From NCBI RefSeq assembly GCF_003019035.1, contig NZ_CP027447.1: a DNA stretch of 64,000 nt. The stretch is one strand, 5' to 3'. The position numbers and the translations under genes were made by a program. Source of the DNA: Escherichia coli. GTDB taxonomy: Bacteria > Pseudomonadota > Gammaproteobacteria > Enterobacterales > Enterobacteriaceae. The notes below the pieces were generated by a model. The model ran no database searches and was not told where the DNA came from. It saw only the letters and a list, made by a program, of their open reading frames with translations. Positions 26,558 to 43,873 of this stretch are shown here, piece after piece (the stretch's first letter is position 1; each line of letters starts with the position of its first letter).

Positions 26558-26633
26558 GCCGATATAGCTCAGTTGGTAGAGCAGCGCATTCGTAATGCGA
26601 AGGTCGTAGGTTCGACTCCTATTATCGGCACCA
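26558..26633 (+). tRNA. thrW: tRNA-Thr (CGT anticodon)
   Basis: 76-nt sequence GCCGATATAGCTCAGTTGGTAGAGCAGCGCATTCGTAATGCGAAGGTCGTAGGTTCGACTCCTATTATCGGCACCA with cloverleaf pairing and CCA end; downstream of proA. Confidence 0.9.
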
Positions 26634-26647
26634 TTAAAATCAATAAG

Positions 26648-27811
26648 TTACACATCATTAGTACCTTCCTTATTTTTTGACTGGGACAAATTTGGGACCG
26701 ATGGGTTCAGGATCGAGTCTATTTGCCGTGCGTGTTCGGTAAGGTGATTAGGTGCAAGGTGAGCATATCGACGAACCATTTCGATAGACTCCCAGCCTCC
26801 CATTTCCTGTAACACTGACAACGGGACTCCGGCTTGAACCAGCCAACTTGCCCAGGTGTGTCTCAAGTCGTGAAATCTGAAATCATCAATACCAGCCCGT
26901 CTCAGCGCCGCTTTCCAGGCTGTGTTTGCGTCATACCGCATCTTCCTTACTGTTGGCGCTTTCGTTCCGTCTGGTTTGGTACAGCTTTCCTTGTACACAA
27001 ATACCCAACGGTGATGATTCCCGATTTGTTTTTTCAATACGCGACATGCAGTATCATTCAGCGCAACGCCAATTGCGCGGTTTGATTTACTCTCTTCCGG
27101 GTTTATCCATGCCACCCGGCGCTGCATATCTATTTGTTGCCATTCAAGGTTGATGATGTTCGAGCGTCTTAAGCCTGTTGCCAGTGCAAATTCAACAACA
27201 GACTTTAATGGCTCCGGACATTCATCAATCAGCCTTTGTGCTTCATGGGGTTCCAGCCAGCGGATCCGTTTATTCTTTGGTTGAGGCACTTTAATAATTG
27301 GTGCCTTATCCAGCATTTTCCATTCACGCTCTGCGGCTCTTAGTAGGGCCTTTATAAATGAAAGATGCGTAGCCTTCGTTGCAACGGACGCTGGTTTTGG
27401 CGTGTATTCTGGAACAGGTTTCCCTTTTTTTCTGCATGCTTCTGCCCTGAGTTTCCAGTTTTCCTCATGACGCCGGTTCGTCATTTTCTGCATTGCTGAA
27501 TAAATTTTTGATTCAGTAATGTCTCTTAGTTGCATTCCTGCGAAATGTTGAAGCCAGAATCCGATCCGGCTTTTGTCATCGTCCAGTGATTTTTTATGTG
27601 CTTTCTCTTCAAGCCACCTGACACACGCTTCCTCGAACGTTATATCAGGTATTTCACCAAGTTTGCTGACCCGCCATGCTTCGGCCTTTAGCTTGTCATG
27701 GAGTTCTGTCGCCTGCCTTTTGTCCTTTGTTCCAAGAGACTGTTTAAATCTTTTACCGTTCGGCAATGTGAAACTGGCGTACCATATTTCACCTCTGCGG
27801 AAGAGTGACAT
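26648..27811 (-). CDS. int: Tyrosine integrase (P22-like)
   Basis: 387-aa ORF closely resembling P22 Int from memory ([41 protein letters not shown]...); C-terminal catalytic motifs HDLRHTWAS and VRRYAHL. Confidence 0.9.
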
Positions 27812-35080: not shown

Positions 35081-35571
35081 TCATGAGTCTTTTGAATGAC
35101 GTTCAGAAATTCATTGAAGCCCATCCGGGGTGTACTTCCGGAGACATTGCGGATGCTTTTGCAGGTTACTCACGACAGCGCGTTCTGCAGTCAGCAAGCA
35201 AGTTACGTCAGAGTGGGCGTGTGGCTCACCGTTGTGAAGGGGATACACGCAGACATTTCCCGCGGCTGACTGAGATACCGCAGGAGCCGGAACCGCAACC
35301 AGTTCGTGAATCCAGACCTGTGCGCAATTTCTATGTCGGCACTAACGATCCCCGGGTGATTTTGTGCCTGACCCGCCAGGCGGAAGAACTGGAGTCCAGG
35401 GGCTTATACCGTCGTGCTGCAACGGTGTGGATGGCGGCATTCCGTGAAAGCCACTCCCAGCAAGAGCGAAACAATTTTCTTGCGCGTCGTGAGCGGTGTT
35501 TACGGAAAAGCAGCAAGCGCGCTGTATCGGGTGAAGAGTGGTATCTGTCAGGGAATTACGTGGGGGCTTAA
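35077..35571 (+). CDS. Hypothetical protein (possible PerC/ANR-like regulator)
   Basis: 164-aa ORF; Arg-rich helical C-terminus; family assignment is a weak recollection. Confidence 0.3.
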   Translation: MIMSLLNDVQKFIEAHPGCTSGDIADAFAGYSRQRVLQSASKLRQSGRVAHRCEGDTRRHFPRLTEIPQEPEPQPVRESRPVRNFYVGTNDPRVILCLTRQAEELESRGLYRRAATVWMAAFRESHSQQERNNFLARRERCLRKSSKRAVSGEEWYLSGNYVGA

Positions 35572-35897
35572 TGACGACGTTAACTCAATGCCAGCAGCAG
35601 GTGCTGGATATGCTGATTTCTTATCAGAAAGAGCGTGGCTTTCCGCCAACCAATCAGGAGGTGGCAACCATGCTGGGATACCGTTCGGTGAATGCAGCGG
35701 TGGAGCATCTTCGCGCACTGGAGAAAAAAGGTGTCATCACGATAAAGCGTGGCGTGGCCCGGGGTATCACTCTTCATACCGCGGTGAAGGACGACGACAG
35801 CGAGGCGGTCGGGATTATCCGCTCACTGCTTGCCGGTGAGGAAAACGCAAGGCTGCGTGCAACCCACTGGTTACATGAGAGGGGCCTGAAAGTATGA
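35571..35897 (+). CDS. LexA N-terminal DNA-binding-domain-like protein (no peptidase domain)
   Basis: ORF-track 35538..35897; ATG at 35571 gives MTTLTQCQQQVLDMLISYQKERGFPPTNQEVATMLGYRSVNAAVEHLRALEKKGVITIKRGVARGITL, which parallels the LexA N-domain; ends after about 108 aa. Confidence 0.6.
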   Translation: MTTLTQCQQQVLDMLISYQKERGFPPTNQEVATMLGYRSVNAAVEHLRALEKKGVITIKRGVARGITLHTAVKDDDSEAVGIIRSLLAGEENARLRATHWLHERGLKV

Positions 35898-36302: not shown

Positions 36303-37100
36303 ATGAATAATCTGATGGTCATTGATGGTATTGAAGTTCGTCGTGATGCTTATGGGCGTTACAGCCTGAACGATCTGCACAGGGCTGCCGGTTCTCTGGA
36401 TAAGCATAAGCCTGCATTCTGGCTCCGCAATGAGCAAACTGAACGTTTAATAAGCGAGTTGCAGATTTGCAACTCGGTCAATATAGAGCCAGTTAACGTT
36501 ATTCGTGGTGGAAATAACCAGGGGACGTATGTCTGCAAAGAACTGGTGTATGCCTATGCAATGTGGATCAGCCCGTCATTCCATCTGAAGGTGATCCGTA
36601 CTTTCGACATGGTAACCAGCGCACCTGAAAAATTATCCGGACAGGCTGCTGACAAGATGCAGGCTGGCGTGATTCTGCTGGACTTTATGCGCCGGGAGTT
36701 AAATCTGTCTAACTCTTCAGTGCTTGGAGCCTGTCAGAAACTTCAGGAGGCTGTTGGCTTACCGAATCTGGCACCGCGCTATGCCATTGATGCTCCTGCT
36801 GATGCACACGATGGCTCAAGTCGCCCTACGCTGTCACTGAGTGCACTGCTGAAACAGTATGGTATCCGCCTGACGGCTAATCAGGCATATCACCAGATGG
36901 TGAAGCTGGGGATCGTCGAGCAGCGCGAACGATACAGCCGTACCGCGATTAACAACATCAAAAAATTCTGGTCGCTGACAGCGAAAGGCTGCATGTTCGG
37001 CAAGAACATCACCAGTCCCGCAAATCCGCGCGAGACGCAGCCGCATTTCTTCGAGTCCCGATTCCCTGAGCTGTTAAAGCTGCTCGATACCGTTCATTGA
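36303..37100 (+). CDS. KilA-N domain protein (antirepressor-like)
   Basis: 265-aa ORF; KilA-N-like N-terminus (VIDGIEVRRDAYGRYSLNDLHRAAG...PAFWLRNEQTERLISEL). Confidence 0.65.
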   Translation: MNNLMVIDGIEVRRDAYGRYSLNDLHRAAGSLDKHKPAFWLRNEQTERLISELQICNSVNIEPVNVIRGGNNQGTYVCKELVYAYAMWISPSFHLKVIRTFDMVTSAPEKLSGQAADKMQAGVILLDFMRRELNLSNSSVLGACQKLQEAVGLPNLAPRYAIDAPADAHDGSSRPTLSLSALLKQYGIRLTANQAYHQMVKLGIVEQRERYSRTAINNIKKFWSLTAKGCMFGKNITSPANPRETQPHFFESRFPELLKLLDTVH

Positions 37101-37101
37101 G

Positions 37102-38097
37102 GTGACCGTGAGAGCACTACTGACCCCTGAAATTGCCCCGCGTATGGGGATCGTATTGTTCAGACCAGGTTCAGAGCTGATGCCCCTGTTTATGCAGGGG
37201 CGTGTCCTGCTGGAGCCTGAGCCGGAACGTTATTCATCTTTCGCCAGTGGTGCCGTTCCGGCGGCATCACAACCGCTGGCGGATGATCCTGCCGTTCGGG
37301 CCGTGTTCCGCAATGAGGCAGTGATCCGTCGTGCTGGTGGCGTGGAATGTCTTGAAAGCTGGTTACTTCGTGAAAAAGGCTGCCAGTGGCCTCATTCCGA
37401 CTGGCACAGCGAGAACATGACCACAATGCGACACGCTCCGGGCGCAATCCGTCTGTGCTGGCACTGCGATAACCAGCTGCGCGATCAGTTCACGGAACGG
37501 CTGGAATCAATGGCAACGGATAACTGTGCCCGCTGGGTGTTGTCTGTTGTGCGTCGGGATCTTGGTTTTGATGACAGTCACGTTGTGACAATGCCGGAAC
37601 TGTGCTGGTGGCTGGTTCGTAATGATCTGGCGGATGCCTTACCGGAAAGCGCAGCCCGTAAGGCACTGAGATTACCGAAGCCTGTTGTGCAGGCGGTCAC
37701 CCGGGAAAGTGACCTTGTACCTTCGGTTCCTGCCACCAGCATTATCCAGGATAAAGCGAAAAAGGTGCTGGCGCTGAAAGTGGATCCGGAGTCGCCGGAG
37801 TCTTTTATGTTACGCCCAAAACGCCGCCGCTGGGTTAATGAAAAGTACACGCGCTGGGTTAAGACACAGCCGTGTGCATGTTGTGGAAAGCCTGCTGATG
37901 ATCCCCACCACCTGATAGGTCACGGTCAGGGTGGAATGGGTACAAAAGCGCATGACCTCTTTGTGTTGCCTTTGTGCAGAAAGCATCACGACGAGCTGCA
38001 TGCGGATACCGTGGCATTTGAAGAGAAGTATGGCTCCCAGCTGGAGCTGATATTTCGTTTTATCGATCGTGCACTGGCAATTGGCGTGCTGGCCTGA
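37102..38097 (+). CDS. DUF968-like prophage protein
   Basis: 331-aa ORF with GTG start; Cys/His-rich C-terminus (CACCGKPADDPHHLIGHGQGGMGTKAHD...CRKHHDELH). Confidence 0.5.
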   Translation: MTVRALLTPEIAPRMGIVLFRPGSELMPLFMQGRVLLEPEPERYSSFASGAVPAASQPLADDPAVRAVFRNEAVIRRAGGVECLESWLLREKGCQWPHSDWHSENMTTMRHAPGAIRLCWHCDNQLRDQFTERLESMATDNCARWVLSVVRRDLGFDDSHVVTMPELCWWLVRNDLADALPESAARKALRLPKPVVQAVTRESDLVPSVPATSIIQDKAKKVLALKVDPESPESFMLRPKRRRWVNEKYTRWVKTQPCACCGKPADDPHHLIGHGQGGMGTKAHDLFVLPLCRKHHDELHADTVAFEEKYGSQLELIFRFIDRALAIGVLA

Positions 38098-38114
38098 TTT
38101 TGTGGAGAAAGTTG

Positions 38115-38456
38115 ATGCGTGATATGTATGAAGTATTGGACCGCTGGGGTGCATGGGCTGCAGCAGATAACAGTGGTGTGGACTGGCAGCCTGTTGCTGC
38201 AGGGTTTAAAGGTTTACTACCTCATGGAAAGAAAACACGCCAACAATGCGATGATGATGAAGGAATCATGATTGACAGCTGTGTTGCGCGATTGCGGAAA
38301 TATAAGCCCGAAGAGTATGAGTTGGTTATTGCTCATTTTGTTATCGGCATCTCACTAAGAACTATTGCAAAGAAGCAGAAGTGTTCTGATGGGACAATAA
38401 GAAAAGAGTTGCAAACAGCTCTTGGTTTTCTGGATGGTGTGCTTTCAATGTTGTAA
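38115..38456 (+). CDS. Late-gene antiterminator Q (QuuD-like)
   Basis: ORF-track 38100..38456; ATG at 38115 with GGAGAAAG RBS; MRDMYEVLDRWGAWAA... parallels DLP12 QuuD from memory. Confidence 0.7.
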   Translation: MRDMYEVLDRWGAWAAADNSGVDWQPVAAGFKGLLPHGKKTRQQCDDDEGIMIDSCVARLRKYKPEEYELVIAHFVIGISLRTIAKKQKCSDGTIRKELQTALGFLDGVLSML

Positions 38457-38461
38457 TATTA

Positions 38462-38484
38462 GGGGGAATTACCCCCCTTTTTTT
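38462..38484 (+). terminator. Rho-independent terminator after Q, overlapping the 3' end of the convergent membrane-protein gene
   Basis: ggggg-aatta-cccccc hairpin followed by a 7-T run. Confidence 0.5.
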
Positions 38485-39017
38485 CTCTGTTGCTTTAATA
38501 AAATTTTGATATTTTGTCTGATTATGATGAGGCAATGTAATAAAAGAAATACCGTTAGTATTGCAAGCCATACGCAAAATAAGCATGCATATAAATTAGT
38601 TGAAAGTCCAATAGTGAATTGTGCAATTGCTGTTGTGATAGAACATAATATTGATGTATTAATAAATGAGGATAAATTGTCTAAAGGTTTATAAAGTACA
38701 CTATCATTGATTTTGTCAATAGGTATACCAGTGGCAATGCTATAAATTTCCTTATATTCCTGAGTTGCAAAAACCTTATCGCGTAAATTTATTATGACAA
38801 AGGTATGCAGGCTCAATAAAAATGAGCCCACGGAAATAAAACCGGAGAAGAGATAGCCTCGTAAGTTTTTATGATAAAAATCAAAAAAGTTAACACTTAC
38901 TTTAGGTGTGTTTCTGTACAATAGGTAAAGTGCAAGCAATGCCAGGATCGAGAATGCAAGCAGTGTAAGGTACTGATACCTCAATCTTTTATTTATTAGC
39001 CATTCATATAAAGGCAT
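38469..39017 (-). CDS. Unassigned 182-aa four-helix integral membrane protein (gene B of AT-rich cassette)
   Basis: ORF-track; four hydrophobic segments (approx. residues 17-35, 54-78, 119-143, 144-166); basic C-terminus (RQNIKILLKQQRKKGG); start overlaps gene A stop by 14 nt; very AT-rich codon usage. Confidence 0.6.
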   Translation of the reverse strand: MPLYEWLINKRLRYQYLTLLAFSILALLALYLLYRNTPKVSVNFFDFYHKNLRGYLFSGFISVGSFLLSLHTFVIINLRDKVFATQEYKEIYSIATGIPIDKINDSVLYKPLDNLSSFINTSILCSITTAIAQFTIGLSTNLYACLFCVWLAILTVFLLLHCLIIIRQNIKILLKQQRKKGG

Positions 39018-39930
39018 TTTTATTCGTCCCGTTCAGCATTTCTTCTTTTATCATATCAAAAACAGGGTTTGTTGTATAATTATCGTTTGTCAATCCATTG
39101 ACTTTATCGGCAATTATATCGAAATCGTATGTTTCAAAAAAAACAGGGCAGTTCATAAAATCAATGGTTTTTTCTATTCCTGCATGGTTTACTGCAATAA
39201 CCTGTGCTTTAGTAACTCCACTCATAGAATTATAAATATTTGAAAGATTCTGAGATAGTTGTTGCACTTTTGTTCTGTCGCTAGAATTAAAATTCATATC
39301 TATTGTGGTGGTGTTAACAAATTGTTCAAGCGCAGTCATTGGTCCACCTTTAAAATCTATATAATTAAATTTAAAGCTTGTGCTTTTAATCTCTTTGAAT
39401 TGACATAAAACACTCTGAATGTTGTTTTTATTTGTCATAAGGCTGAAAGTCAGTCTTTCTTTGTATTTTTTATTTATTGCAGTTACTTCTTTTTGTTTTG
39501 GTTTATCACCAAGTTTTTTTATTTCTTCTTTATTTTGATTTCTGATAAATTCATTACTTATTGTTTCTAAATGAGAAAAGAGAGTGTTCAGACTGCATGA
39601 ACCGTGGTGATACATATAGAGACCAGAAAGATTAGATTTTTTAATTAAGAAAAAGTTGAAATTAGCAAGTTTGTCACTTCCTTGAAGATCTTCAATTTTA
39701 AGCTGGAATTTACCATCAACAAATTGCGACTTACAGTTCTTTTTTTGGTTTCTGAATGTGACAACTAATCCATAATAGAAATCATTCACATCCGAAATGA
39801 GAATTTTACGAGTATAGTCTGTGCGACTGTGTTCTCTGTTTGATGCGTTGATAAAAGCATTCATTACGTCAACGGTATTAATATTTTTGTTATTGTTATT
39901 TATTGTAAATCCTATGCTTCTAACTTTCAT
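39004..39930 (-). CDS. Unassigned 308-aa soluble protein (gene A of AT-rich cassette)
   Basis: ORF-track; Asn/Lys-rich; no hydrophobic helices; no Walker A or nucleotidyltransferase motif seen; AT-rich. Confidence 0.6.
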   Translation of the reverse strand: MKVRSIGFTINNNNKNINTVDVMNAFINASNREHSRTDYTRKILISDVNDFYYGLVVTFRNQKKNCKSQFVDGKFQLKIEDLQGSDKLANFNFFLIKKSNLSGLYMYHHGSCSLNTLFSHLETISNEFIRNQNKEEIKKLGDKPKQKEVTAINKKYKERLTFSLMTNKNNIQSVLCQFKEIKSTSFKFNYIDFKGGPMTALEQFVNTTTIDMNFNSSDRTKVQQLSQNLSNIYNSMSGVTKAQVIAVNHAGIEKTIDFMNCPVFFETYDFDIIADKVNGLTNDNYTTNPVFDMIKEEMLNGTNKNAFI

Positions 39931-40048
39931 GTGTATTCCAGGACCGACTAAAGATAGCGAGAATGGGGACGCATAGTTTATAAAAATCCTAACGCGTACG
40001 CAAAAAGTATTATATCGTGTTAAGAGTGGTTACTTCGCCACACAACTT

Positions 40049-40073
40049 AAACCCGCCGCTGAGCGGTTTTTTT
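40049..40073 (+). terminator. Candidate terminator (possible tR'-like element of late promoter region)
   Basis: Short ccgc...gcgg hairpin followed by a 7-T run, in the intergenic region between the cassette and late genes. Confidence 0.3.
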
Positions 40074-40194
40074 GTACCTGTAAACCTTGTGCAGTACAGT
40101 AAACACGCTGGTGGTCGTGAATACTGGCTTTTTATCTTGCTGGCTTTTTAGACAAGAGTTATTGGTATGTCATGTTAACCAGAAGGGAAAAGAC

Positions 40195-40398
40195 ATGCTA
40201 AAACAGCAAGATATGACAGAAACCGCCGCCGCAGTCCTTCATTTCTTACCTGCTGACAAGTGGGTAACGCCACGCATGATGACGAGAACTACCGGAGTAA
40301 GCGAAGCCCGGTGCCAGTTAATACTGACTCAGTTAGTTCTGGCGGGTCTGGCGAAGGATAACGGCGGGTACGGGAATAAATTCAGACGCTGCCAGTAA
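40195..40398 (+). CDS. Small hypothetical protein (67 aa)
   Basis: ORF-track 40087..40398; ATG at 40195 with AGAAGGGAAAAG RBS; MLKQQDMTETAAAVLHFLPADKWVTPRMMTRTTGVSEARCQLILTQLVLAGLAKDNGG. Confidence 0.4.
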   Translation: MLKQQDMTETAAAVLHFLPADKWVTPRMMTRTTGVSEARCQLILTQLVLAGLAKDNGGYGNKFRRCQ

Positions 40399-40548
40399 TG
40401 GCGGTTTCCTGCTGTGAAAATGGGCGGCTGGTGGGTGTTGGTAGCACCTGCCAGCCATTCGCTCATGCTTACTGGTCACAAGCGAACCACGGCCCACTGC
40501 TTTAGCGCAAAAGCAGAGTGAGCCTACCAGAGTTACGCTTACTGATCC

Positions 40549-41601
40549 ATGAAAAATACTGTAAAAATAAACAGTGTTGATTTAATCAACGCTGATTGCC
40601 TGCATTTTATTCAGTCCCTGCCTGATGATTCCATTGACCTGATTGTTACCGATCCGCCTTACTTCAAGGTGAAACCTAACGGTTGGGACAATCAGTGGAA
40701 AGGGGACGAAGATTACCTTAAGTGGCTGGACCACTGTCTGGCCCAGTTCTGGCGGGTGTTAAAACCTGCCGGAAGCCTTTACCTGTTCTGTGGGCATCGC
40801 CTGGCATCTGATATTGAGATCATGATGCGTGAACGTTTCAACGTGCTTAACCATATCATCTGGGCGAAGCCGTCCGGACGTTGGAATGGGTGTAATAAAG
40901 AAAGTCTGCGCGCATATTTTCCTGCCACAGAGCGCGTTCTGTTTGCTGAACATTACCAGGGGCCATATCGCGGCAAAAGTGACGGCTATGCGGCAAAAGA
41001 AAGGGAACTCAAACAGCACATAATGGCACCGCTGATATCGTATTTCAGGGATGCTCGTGCCGAACTGGGTATAACGGCAAAACAAATTGCCGAAGCCACA
41101 GGTAAGAAAAATATGGTTTCCCACTGGTTTGGTGCCAGTCAGTGGCAGTTGCCGAATGAGGCTGACTATCGGAAGTTACAGGCACTGTTTTCCCGTATAG
41201 CGGCAGAGAAGTTTCAGGAACAACAACTGGAACAACCACACCACCAGCTGGTGGCATCTTATGATTCACTGAATCGCAAATATTCTGAATTGCTGGATGA
41301 GTTTAAATCTCTCCGGCGCTATTTCTCCGTATCAGTCTCCGTGCCTTATACCGATGTCTGGACGCATAAGCCCGTTCAGTTCTACCCGGGTAAACATCCG
41401 TGCGAGAAACCGGCGGATATGCTCCGGCAAATAATCAATGCCAGTAGTCGACCTGGTGATCTGGTTGCTGATTTCTTTATGGGATCCGGTTCCACAATAA
41501 AAGCAGCAATGGCGCTGGGGCGTCGGGCGTTAGGTGTTGAACTTGAGTCAGAGCGGTTTAATCAGACGGTGAAAGAGGTAAGTGAACTGGTGGGGAAATA
41601 A
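40549..41601 (+). CDS. DNA methyltransferase (N6-adenine / N4-cytosine class, DPPY motif), orphan
   Basis: 350-aa ORF; catalytic motif IVTDPPYF near N-terminus and AdoMet-binding-like C-terminus (DLVADFFMGSGST); no adjacent restriction gene recognised. Confidence 0.8.
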   Translation: MKNTVKINSVDLINADCLHFIQSLPDDSIDLIVTDPPYFKVKPNGWDNQWKGDEDYLKWLDHCLAQFWRVLKPAGSLYLFCGHRLASDIEIMMRERFNVLNHIIWAKPSGRWNGCNKESLRAYFPATERVLFAEHYQGPYRGKSDGYAAKERELKQHIMAPLISYFRDARAELGITAKQIAEATGKKNMVSHWFGASQWQLPNEADYRKLQALFSRIAAEKFQEQQLEQPHHQLVASYDSLNRKYSELLDEFKSLRRYFSVSVSVPYTDVWTHKPVQFYPGKHPCEKPADMLRQIINASSRPGDLVADFFMGSGSTIKAAMALGRRALGVELESERFNQTVKEVSELVGK

Positions 41602-41677
41602 TTCTGGTGGCCACGTTGCGTGGCCTTTTTATTTCCAACACAGCACCCGCAAATATCGCGAGGTGAGAGATGACGAA

Positions 41678-42004
41678 ATGCCTCATAACCCAAATACCTG
41701 GCTGGACTTGGTCCAGAGCTGGTGGCGTGGAGACACACCGCTGGGTGCAGTGATTATGTCGATCGTTATGGCTGGTTTGCGCATCGCCTATTTTGGCGGT
41801 GGTGGTGGCTGGAAGCGAAAAACGCTCGAGATTTTGCTATGTGGCGCTCTGACGCTGACCTTTGCATCCGCTCTTGAGTATGTCGGATGGCCTAAATCAC
41901 TATCTGTTGCCATTGGTGGTGGGGTGGGGCTGATCGGTGTCGATGCTATTCGTGGGGCTGCAATGCGAGTAATCGGTAACAAGTTTGGTGGCTCTAAGGA
42001 GTAA
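41678..42004 (+). CDS. Holin
   Basis: ORF-track 41582..42004; ATG at 41678 with GAGGTGA RBS; about 108 aa with hydrophobic helices; immediately upstream of endolysin. Confidence 0.55.
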   Translation: MPHNPNTWLDLVQSWWRGDTPLGAVIMSIVMAGLRIAYFGGGGGWKRKTLEILLCGALTLTFASALEYVGWPKSLSVAIGGGVGLIGVDAIRGAAMRVIGNKFGGSKE

Positions 42005-42007
42005 TTT

Positions 42008-42484
42008 ATGCAGGTACTAAATTCCCAGCGTAAAGCTTTCCTTGATATGGTGGCTTGGTCAGAAGGAACGGATAACGGACGACAACCGACACGTAACCAC
42101 GGTTATGACGTTATTGTCGGTGGTGAACTCTTCACTGATTACTCCGATCACCCTCGCAAACTTGTCACGCTAAACCCGAAACTCAAGTCAACAGCCGCCG
42201 GACGTTACCAGCTTCTTTCACGCTGGTGGGATGCTTACCGTAAACAGCTTGGCCTGAAAGATTTTTCTCCAGAAAGCCAGGACGCTGTAGCTTTGCAGCA
42301 GATTAAAGAGCGTGGCGCTTTACCGATGATTGACCGTGGCAATATTCGTCAGGCAATCGACCGTTGCAGCAATATCTGGGCGTCATTACCTGGTGCAGGT
42401 TACGGTCAGTATGAACATAAAATCGGTGACCTGATTGCACGGTTTGAAGAGGCTGGTGGGGTGATAAATGAAGTTGAGCTATAA
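42008..42484 (+). CDS. Endolysin, lambda R-like lytic transglycosylase
   Basis: 158-aa ORF near-identical in pattern to lambda R from memory (NSQRKAFLDMVAWSEGTDNGRQPTRNHGYDVIVGGELFTDYSDHPRKLVTLNPKLKST). Confidence 0.85.
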   Translation: MQVLNSQRKAFLDMVAWSEGTDNGRQPTRNHGYDVIVGGELFTDYSDHPRKLVTLNPKLKSTAAGRYQLLSRWWDAYRKQLGLKDFSPESQDAVALQQIKERGALPMIDRGNIRQAIDRCSNIWASLPGAGYGQYEHKIGDLIARFEEAGGVINEVEL

Positions 42485-42860
42485 GCTGGTTATCGCTGCT
42501 TTCTTCGTTACTGTCATTGGTTCTTTCATCTGGTCAGCCAACCACTACTACAGCAAATATCAGTACGAAAAGAAACGTGCTGATGAGGCTGAACGAAATG
42601 CTGGATCAGCAACAGCCATTACCAATAACGTCCTGCAATCACTGCAAATCGTCAATACAGTACTGGAGGCTAACCAGCGTGCAAAACAGCAGATCGCACT
42701 GGAGTCACAAAGAACCCAGGAAGATATCAAAATGGCCGTTGCGGATGATGATTGTGCTTCACGTCTTGTGCCTGCTGCCGCTGCTGAGCGGTTGCGGAAG
42801 TATGCGGACAGTTTACGTGAACACTCCGACGGTACCACTGCCAGCCAGCCTGACGGCTGA
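42468..42860 (+). CDS. i-spanin Rz
   Basis: 130-aa ORF with N-terminal TM anchor (LVIAAFFVTVIGSFIW) and coiled-coil-like body; start overlaps endolysin 3' end. Confidence 0.65.
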   Translation: MKLSYKLVIAAFFVTVIGSFIWSANHYYSKYQYEKKRADEAERNAGSATAITNNVLQSLQIVNTVLEANQRAKQQIALESQRTQEDIKMAVADDDCASRLVPAAAAERLRKYADSLREHSDGTTASQPDG

Positions 42861-43014
42861 AACCCCTCAGCCTGATTTACCTGATCATTTTACGTGGGGC
42901 TCGAGCTTAGATCTGAATGCCGCCTTGTTGTCTGCATTGGCGCAGTGTAATACCGATAAAGCTGACATCAGAAGGATTGAAGTTGAGCGTGGTCACATCA
43001 TGCAAAAAAAATGA
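42745..43014 (+). CDS. o-spanin Rz1 lipoprotein (overlapping Rz in +1 frame)
   Basis: Tandem ATG at 42745/42748; lipobox LLPLLSGC; Pro-rich; begins inside Rz and extends beyond it. Confidence 0.5.
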   Translation: MMIVLHVLCLLPLLSGCGSMRTVYVNTPTVPLPASLTAETPQPDLPDHFTWGSSLDLNAALLSALAQCNTDKADIRRIEVERGHIMQKK

Positions 43015-43522: not shown

Positions 43523-43873
43523 ATGCCCCCACGAACCCCAAAAGCCTGCCGTGTTCGCGGCTGCCGCCATACCACCACTGACCCGTCAGGCTATTGCGAA
43601 AGCCACAAAAGCGAAGGCTGGAAGCAATACAAACCTGGACAATCCCGTCATCAGCGCGGCTACGGTTCGAAGTGGGACAGTATCCGCGCGCGTGTCCTGA
43701 AGCGTGACAAAGGCCTGTGTCAGTTATGTCTGCGTTCTGGTGTGGTGCGTGAGGCGAAAACTGTTGACCACATCATCCCTAAAGCGCATGGCGGCACTGA
43801 TGCTGACAGTAATCTGCAGAGTCTGTGCTGGCCGTGCCATAAGGCGAAGACGACCCGTGAACGGTTAAAGTGA
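43523..43873 (+). CDS. HNH endonuclease (terminase-associated)
   Basis: 116-aa ORF; Cys-rich zinc-finger-like N-terminus; HNH motif (VDHIIPKAHGGTDADSNLQSLCWPCH); directly upstream of terminase genes. Confidence 0.8.
   Translation: MPPRTPKACRVRGCRHTTTDPSGYCESHKSEGWKQYKPGQSRHQRGYGSKWDSIRARVLKRDKGLCQLCLRSGVVREAKTVDHIIPKAHGGTDADSNLQSLCWPCHKAKTTRERLK

Follow-up and report, generated by a model that had tools for sequence, protein, structure and literature searches.

A late-region methyltransferase gene of the M.EcoGII family and its conserved structured leader in a lambdoid prophage of Escherichia coli

What does a DNA methyltransferase gene do between the antiterminator gene and the lysis genes of a prophage when no restriction endonuclease stands at its side? 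The question is raised by a gene of the window, i.e., the whole 64,000-nucleotide stretch of Escherichia coli DNA (contig NZ_CP027447.1, assembly GCF_003019035.1). The initial annotation had described it, from the letters alone, as an orphan methyltransferase of 350 amino acids with the catalytic motif DPPY, located between a low-GC cassette and the holin gene. This description proved exact with regard to open reading frame (ORF), motif and position (Table 1), and the neighbouring genes indeed encode no recognisable nuclease family. In our reading, the gene likely encodes a prophage-borne, non-specific N6-adenine methyltransferase (MTase) that is made late and protects progeny DNA against restriction.

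The class of the enzyme follows a consistent pattern of motifs and fold. The protein matches the Pfam family N6_N4_Mtase over aa 29-341 (E-value 1.3e-42); the score of 146.6 bits compares with a cut-off of 26.7, and the match is, thus, far above chance. Methyltransferase models of both PADLOC and PHROG match the protein over its full length. Its motifs are DPPY (aa 35-38), HPCEKP (aa 283-288) and FMGSG (FxGxG; aa 310-314), with the catalytic DPPY in the N-terminal and the SAM-binding FxGxG in the C-terminal part, which is the order of the β-class. A Dam-like (D12, α-class) enzyme was considered and rejected, N6_N4_Mtase being the sole Pfam family found and the order of motifs being opposite to FxGxG-before-DPPY. 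The closest solved structures by sequence are M.BceJIV, M.RsrI, M.MboIIA and CcrM. In an AF2 model built on an alignment of 80 homologues (pLDDT 92, pTM 0.87; a single-sequence AlphaFold prediction gave a pLDDT of 39 and was set aside), a Rossmann core (approximately aa 1-135 and 260-350), with the β-class enzymes CcrM, M.BceJIV, M.MboIIA and M.RsrI as best Foldseek matches, is interrupted by an all-helical insert at aa 146-255 (helices 146-158, 160-173, 177-184, 190-194, 204-223 and 238-255). According to the model, this insert is the counterpart of the helix-turn-helix recognition domain with its linkers that has been published for M.EcoGII.

M.EcoGII is a non-specific adenine MTase acting on DNA, encoded in a prophage of E. 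coli O104:H4 (PMC5778455). Together with M.EcoGI of the same O104:H4 strain, C227-11 (Murray et al. 2018, PMC5778455), it shares with the MTase of the window a length of 349-350 aa, the location in a prophage, and the β-class build with N-terminal DPPY, central helical recognition domain and C-terminal FxGxG. The window protein and M.EcoGII are colinear over their full length, with 283 of 349 positions identical and two gaps; the global identity of 80.6% (~81%) is accurate only to about 1%, because the M.EcoGII sequence, like those of the ancestors mentioned below, was machine-read from the supplementary PDF of PMC11551740 and carries a few reading errors. Natural M.EcoGII-like clusters (P0138, P0136) are 92-93% identical to the M.EcoGII sequence used and 83% identical to the window MTase. 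In total, the latter differs from M.EcoGII at approximately 67 residues (~19%). Identity to the reconstructed ancestors of M.EcoGII, Anc291 and SUPREM, amounts to 88.3% and 70.1%, respectively (global), and within the target-recognition region (aa 160-237), it is 77% to M.EcoGII and 68% to SUPREM. M.EcoGII, Anc291 and SUPREM have been found to be largely non-site-specific on RNA, and the ancestors are active (PMC11551740). While Anc291 and SUPREM are synthetic reconstructions and the window MTase is a natural protein, their activity and largely absent site-specificity place the latter within experimentally sampled sequence space. Judged by these comparisons of sequence, the gene belongs to the M.EcoGII family, of which it is an ordinary allele.

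The same gene is annotated at 96-100% nucleotide identity in SfV (orf48), cdtI, mEp460, Ayreon and others, and is present in 1255 of 5426 complete E. coli genomes; a relative is encoded in more than 599 stretches of IMG/VR, and the wider family comprises 3064 clusters (90% identity, E <= 1e-10) across the Enterobacterales. An enzyme of the M.EcoGII family is, moreover, sold commercially. The mere finding of such a gene, a common allele from a family with characterised members, is therefore of little weight.

Does the allele of the window recognise a discrete target? An orphan MTase with a single target, serving either as a shield against one restriction system or as an epigenetic regulator, would be in keeping with the site-specificity of most β-class MTases, with the 23% of positions at which the recognition domain deviates from that of M.EcoGII, and with the label “site-specific DNA-methyltransferase” that NCBI gives to some of the relatives, which is, however, a generic label. 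The nearest site-specific relative, M.PflMI, which recognises CCANNNNNTGG, has the same overall predicted architecture including the helix-turn-helix recognition domain; it lacks the charged linker, and it is only ~27% identical to M.EcoGII (PMC11551740), a value that is far exceeded by the full-length similarity of the window MTase. SUPREM, on the other hand, remains largely non-site-specific at ~69% identity to M.EcoGII (PMC11551740), and the window MTase lies well inside that range. Furthermore, homologues of ~93% similarity are listed as “nonspecific” by REBASE-based annotation, and no motif was attributable to them in lysogen methylomes (PMC6602927). We therefore regard a site-specific enzyme as improbable. 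Non-specific activity would be expected of the window allele from its family membership, and since the family is non-specific, no discrete methylation motif should be expected for it; the prediction of a target from database comparison, which had been envisaged initially, thus loses its object.

The gene resides in a lambdoid, SfV/mEp460-like prophage that is inserted next to tRNA-Thr(CGT) (thrW). At 26558-27811, this tRNA gene is directly followed by a minus-strand ORF of 387 aa with the size of an integrase, which marks the left prophage end. thrW is also the site of SfV, while ECONIH5 carries an almost identical late region at icd. The MTase gene lies on the late strand, downstream of the antiterminator gene Q, and the Rz-like gene is followed by HNH, terminase, portal and head genes. 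Two starts are available for the holin, namely GTG at 41582 (140 aa), which overlaps the end of the MTase gene and spans the terminator hairpin, and the PGAP-annotated ATG at 41678 (108 aa), which is probably the true one.

Table 1. Positions of the features of the prophage and its late region in the window.
Feature	Position	Strand	Remarks
Integrase	26648-27811	-	downstream of proBA-like (proB/proA-sized) ORFs
KilA-N	36303-37100		
DUF968	37102-38097		
Antiterminator Q	38115-38456	+	PF06530; presumed activator of read-through into MTase and lysis genes
Terminator-like hairpin	38461-38478		just downstream of Q
Low-GC two-gene cargo cassette	38469-39930	-	context only, outside the MTase module
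Candidate late promoter/Q-utilisation block	40018-40052	+	begins TGTTAAGAG; putative
Intrinsic-terminator hairpin	40053-40075	+	CCGCCGCTGAGCGG, then T7; conserved
Second terminator-like hairpin	40107-40135	+	conserved leader upstream of small ORF
Small ORF, 67 aa	40195-40398	+	phrog_331
Hairpin across small-ORF stop codon	40388-40405	+	compensatory pairs at columns 7-18 and 8-17
150-nt spacer	40399-40548		between small ORF and MTase
Conserved structured 5' leader of MTase mRNA, ~135 nt	40414-40551	+	
Leader outer helix	40414-40418 with 40546-40550		pairs A and U of the MTase start codon
Leader P0	40421-40425 with 40492-40496		
Leader hairpins	P1 40426-40456; P2 40458-40486; P3 40497-40516; P4 40517-40543		
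M.EcoGII-family β-class N6-adenine DNA MTase	40549-41601	+	ATG start, 350 aa, stop within end coordinate
Intrinsic terminator	41609-41633	+	GGCCACG-TTG-CGTGGCC, then TTTTTATTT; between MTase stop and holin
Lambda-family holin	41678-42004	+	first lysis gene after the MTase module; PGAP start
GH104 lysozyme	42008-42484		
Rz-like protein	42468-42860		
HNH gene, terminase-associated type	43523-43873		

The order Q, MTase, lysis genes is kept behind four different Q families in phages of E. coli, Salmonella and Klebsiella; the types of Q that precede the MTase module are the short PF06530 type, the 250-aa SfV/Qin type, the lambda-type PF03589, DUF1133 with PF06530, and PF06323, and the holins downstream of the module differ among the relatives. 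In a Stx phage, a relative with 93% identity to M.EcoGII is preceded, as in the window, by Q, the small ORF and a 150-nt leader. There, however, stxAB come next, whereas in the window a terminator and then the lysis genes lie downstream of the MTase gene. Two homologues with 64% and 54% identity also lie just 5' of lysis genes, one of them after Q and the other after a promoter-like site and a terminator. With its order unchanged behind varied Q genes and the varied cargo described below, the MTase module forms the conserved opening part of the late operon.

Dam-like MTases of the D12 (α) class are likewise orphan adenine MTases of phages with a presumed anti-restriction role, but they belong to another class, have GATC as target and are encoded in the early region. 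Such a gene in the nin region, as in ECONIH5, was first assumed to be present in the window and was found to be absent: the 654-bp “phage N-6-adenine-methyltransferase” gene of the near-identical relatives ECONIH5 and mEp460_4F5 is cleanly missing at 35571-35574. The M.EcoGII-like gene is, thus, the only MTase gene seen in that part of the prophage.

Between Q and the MTase module, the window carries two minus-strand genes (38469-39017 and 39004-39930) with a GC content of 0.31-0.38, as opposed to 0.48-0.50, which encode a 182-aa membrane protein with three to four hydrophobic segments and a 308-aa protein (phrog_2802); searches of Pfam, NCBIfam, PADLOC and PDB sequences returned zero matches for either. 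The initial annotation had suggested that the MTase might mark DNA as self for this cassette, should the latter be a restriction-like or modification-sensing defence system. The adjacency of MTase gene and cassette and the lack of a recognisable function of the cassette would suit such a partnership, while the opposite strand and the deviating GC content of the cassette speak against it, as does its distribution. The Q gene was found in 70 of 80 IMG/VR loci that were surveyed for an MTase at least 99% identical to that of the window. In only five of these 70 loci is the cassette of the window present; nothing separates Q and module in 13 (gap ~255 nt), and the remainder falls into approximately 17 further classes of gap size. 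The module is also devoid of cargo in SfV and vB_EcoM-720R4, and unrelated cargo accompanies it in cdtI, PhiR40_1 and L010. The small ORF and a spacer of 149-152 nt, by comparison, occur without exception in the 78 loci with upstream DNA. Furthermore, a defence system active in the lysogen could not depend on an MTase that would be silent there. Self-marking for the cassette is, hence, highly improbable and the suggestion is not upheld; the site between Q and the MTase module is a cargo slot, and no partnership links the MTase to the cassette. A Type II restriction-modification system was rejected as well, given that an adjacent, co-inherited nuclease is missing (none is recognisable near the MTase in Pfam, NCBIfam, PADLOC or PDB-sequence searches of the neighbours) and that the module also occurs with no or other cargo.

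The slot itself (38457-40050, from Q to the conserved terminator hairpin) holds approximately 19 size classes of inserts in the 70 loci. These comprise a different two-gene minus-strand pair in cdtI and a single gene in PhiR40_1, and an AAA_15/AAA_21 ATPase of 483 aa is inserted in other E. coli prophages; in Ayreon, a copy of the terminator hairpin stands on either side of the insert. For lambdoid phages, a search of the literature for a described hotspot of cargo in this place, between Q and the lysis genes, gave nothing specific.

How the module is transcribed is suggested by the hairpins that bracket it. Terminator-like hairpins are enriched in the region, with 15 found against 3.8 expected. 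The hairpin at 40053-40075 is present in 69 of 78 related loci and in every related phage examined. It carries a terminator annotation in SfV and Ayreon and probably represents tR', the terminator proximal to the late promoter. At the other end, a GGCCAC...GTGGCC hairpin with a T-run is found 3' of the MTase stop codon in all of the 78 related loci having downstream DNA. In the relatives L098 and L010, a T-run comes after the hairpin across the small-ORF stop codon, and the site is terminator-like; in the window, this T-run is weak. The candidate promoter is the block that immediately precedes the putative tR'; in an alignment of three phages with the short, PF06530-type Q, it is invariant regardless of the cargo. 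A consensus scan of 39931-40194 detected no canonical sigma-70 site, and the number of promoter-like sites in the region does not exceed the chance expectation. In phages with an SfV-type Q, a clear TTGCAT-17-TAAGAT is present, followed by AACGATGGG, an arrangement which we take to resemble lambda pR'.

M.EcoGI and M.EcoGII have been described as silent in the lysogen and as harmful on expression; their presumed role is to counter restriction at induction (PMC5778455; PMC12707154). The context of the window MTase, after Q, before the holin and bracketed by terminators, fits Q-dependent late expression as well as this published silence, and we infer both Q-dependence and late timing for the window MTase. 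Of the expectation that the gene is late and protective, the first half is supported by strand and gene order, while the protective role would follow by analogy with the published view of M.EcoGII. The experiment that had been proposed, i.e., comparing the methylomes of a lysogen and a deletion mutant and taking the absence of a new motif as refutation, is ill-suited to this gene: it would give a false negative, because no methylation could be attributed to close homologues in the lysogens that carry them (PMC5778455; PMC6602927). More generally, where an enterobacterial prophage has an “orphan DPPY methyltransferase” between Q and its lysis genes, the enzyme would best be read as a non-specific late adenine methylase, neither a motif-specific enzyme nor one half of a neighbouring defence system, and methylomes of lysogens would not reveal it.

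On this basis, the following course of events is proposed. In the late operon of the thrW lambdoid prophage, the MTase gene would come second, the order being Q, variable cargo slot, candidate late promoter, terminator, small ORF, leader, MTase, terminator and, finally, holin, lysozyme and Rz. The terminators would keep the MTase off in the lysogen, possibly aided by the pairing of the leader with the start codon; this silence would matter in view of the toxicity of the enzyme. Once the prophage is induced, RNA polymerase modified by Q would pass the terminators, and the MTase would be made late. Using SAM, it would methylate adenines in essentially any context, so that the replicated phage DNA would be partly methylated before packaging. 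On entering the next host, progeny genomes would therefore already be protected against the many restriction enzymes of Types I, II and III that m6A blocks. That m6A blocks many restriction enzymes of all three types is established (PMC5778455). Heavy methylation also has its costs, considering that transformation with M.EcoGII-modified plasmid is 10^4-10^5-fold lower (PMC5778455) and that m6A-dependent Type IV enzymes exist (PMC11037411); a net benefit for the phage is therefore an assumption, and the anti-restriction benefit of the window MTase should be understood as presumptive.

A non-specific MTase might also act in ways other than anti-restriction, e.g., by introducing m6A into RNA, by shutting down host DNA transactions late in infection, or by evading other DNA-sensing defences. 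M.EcoGII does methylate ssDNA, RNA and DNA:RNA hybrids (PMC5778455), its expression harms the cell, and its biological function is called unknown in PMC11551740. However, DNA is methylated far better than RNA (V0 11.1 versus 0.12), the blocking of restriction enzymes by m6A argues for the anti-restriction role, and the position of the gene just ahead of lysis and packaging suits the marking of progeny DNA. Such other roles are, therefore, unlikely in our estimation, if marginally less so than a single-target enzyme, and protection of progeny DNA by a late, non-specific methylase remains the preferred explanation.

A further feature of the locus precedes the MTase gene. The 150-nt spacer exceeds the central part of the small ORF in conservation, with ~90% identity across phages of E. 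coli, Salmonella and Klebsiella, and contains the structured leader of Table 1. The leader is devoid of a Shine-Dalgarno sequence, and GATC[C/T]ATG is invariant. Rfam yielded no match at E<=1 over 37500-43000, and noise only at E<=10 over 39950-40570. A scan of one genome per species with the loose motif ATGGGCGG-N(50-80)-AACCNNGGCCCAC returned 91 stretches. In 20 of them, nearly all assigned to Enterobacterales, the contig also encodes an MTase, and all 20 copies of the leader are located 128-130 nt 5' of an M.EcoGII-family start codon, at MTase identities of 57-93%; the genera are Morganella, Providencia, Erwinia, Rosenbergiella, Kluyvera, Buttiauxella, Mangrovibacter, Kosakonia, Trabulsiella, Citrobacter and Klebsiella. 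The other ~70 stretches, from unrelated and mostly high-GC taxa and with no MTase nearby, were discarded as chance matches.

RNAalifold gave a poor consensus on a MAFFT alignment of 27 sequences because the loops are misaligned; hence, hairpins were folded individually and pairs were counted. In almost all variants, a hairpin is formed by each of the four sub-segments. In the 27-sequence alignment, 88.9% of the pair cells form standard pairs, compared to 31-46% with the partners slid, and ten pairs show compensatory changes, with 27 both-side cells versus 8.7 +/- 2.5 in shuffles; these controls retain phylogenetic relatedness, and the structure was transferred from a consensus of seven sequences that are a subset of the same sequences. 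One contig (L104, Logan SRR8137545), in which essentially every C is replaced by T as in a bisulfite-type artefact, was left out of the comparisons as a C-to-T converted assembly.

An ORF within the leader, starting at an invariant AUG (40420-40521; MGGWWVL...), has 33 codons in the window and 4-45 in the relatives. A small peptide was rejected as the cause of leader conservation, given that this ORF varies so widely in length and shows no conservation at the protein level; its first seven codons hardly vary, since they make up the 5' arm of P1. NCBI names relatives of the 67-aa ORF upstream “TrmB family transcriptional regulator” (winged helix), and this small ORF precedes the MTase gene in all 78 close loci, yet it is missing from six of the 20 more distant loci that bear the leader.

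A tentative proposal, which we put forward with less than even confidence, is that the leader is a new cis-regulatory RNA dedicated to M.EcoGII-family genes, acting as a translational gate that would hold back the toxic enzyme until a late signal arrives. The signal that opens it could be the product of the small winged-helix ORF or a metabolite, SAM or SAH. The MTase itself is already known; the observation of the leader may be new, and the gate may be regarded as a lead rather than a finding. Leader RNA and terminator-bracketed module together would explain how phages carry a toxic MTase safely, and to our knowledge, this control circuit has so far not been described.

A parallel is mom/com of phage Mu, where a toxic enzyme of broad DNA modification is made only late, downstream of a small ORF, and structure in the mRNA occludes the start site. 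By analogy, the control logic of the window module would be the same, with an action of the small ORF on the leader being putative; the silence and toxicity on which the comparison draws are documented in PMC12707154. The two systems differ in that chemistry and protein family are unrelated and in that the small ORF is here missing from six of the 20 leader-bearing loci. The small ORF itself comes in two versions that diverge in its central part; hardly any variation is seen at its ends or in the non-coding DNA on either side.
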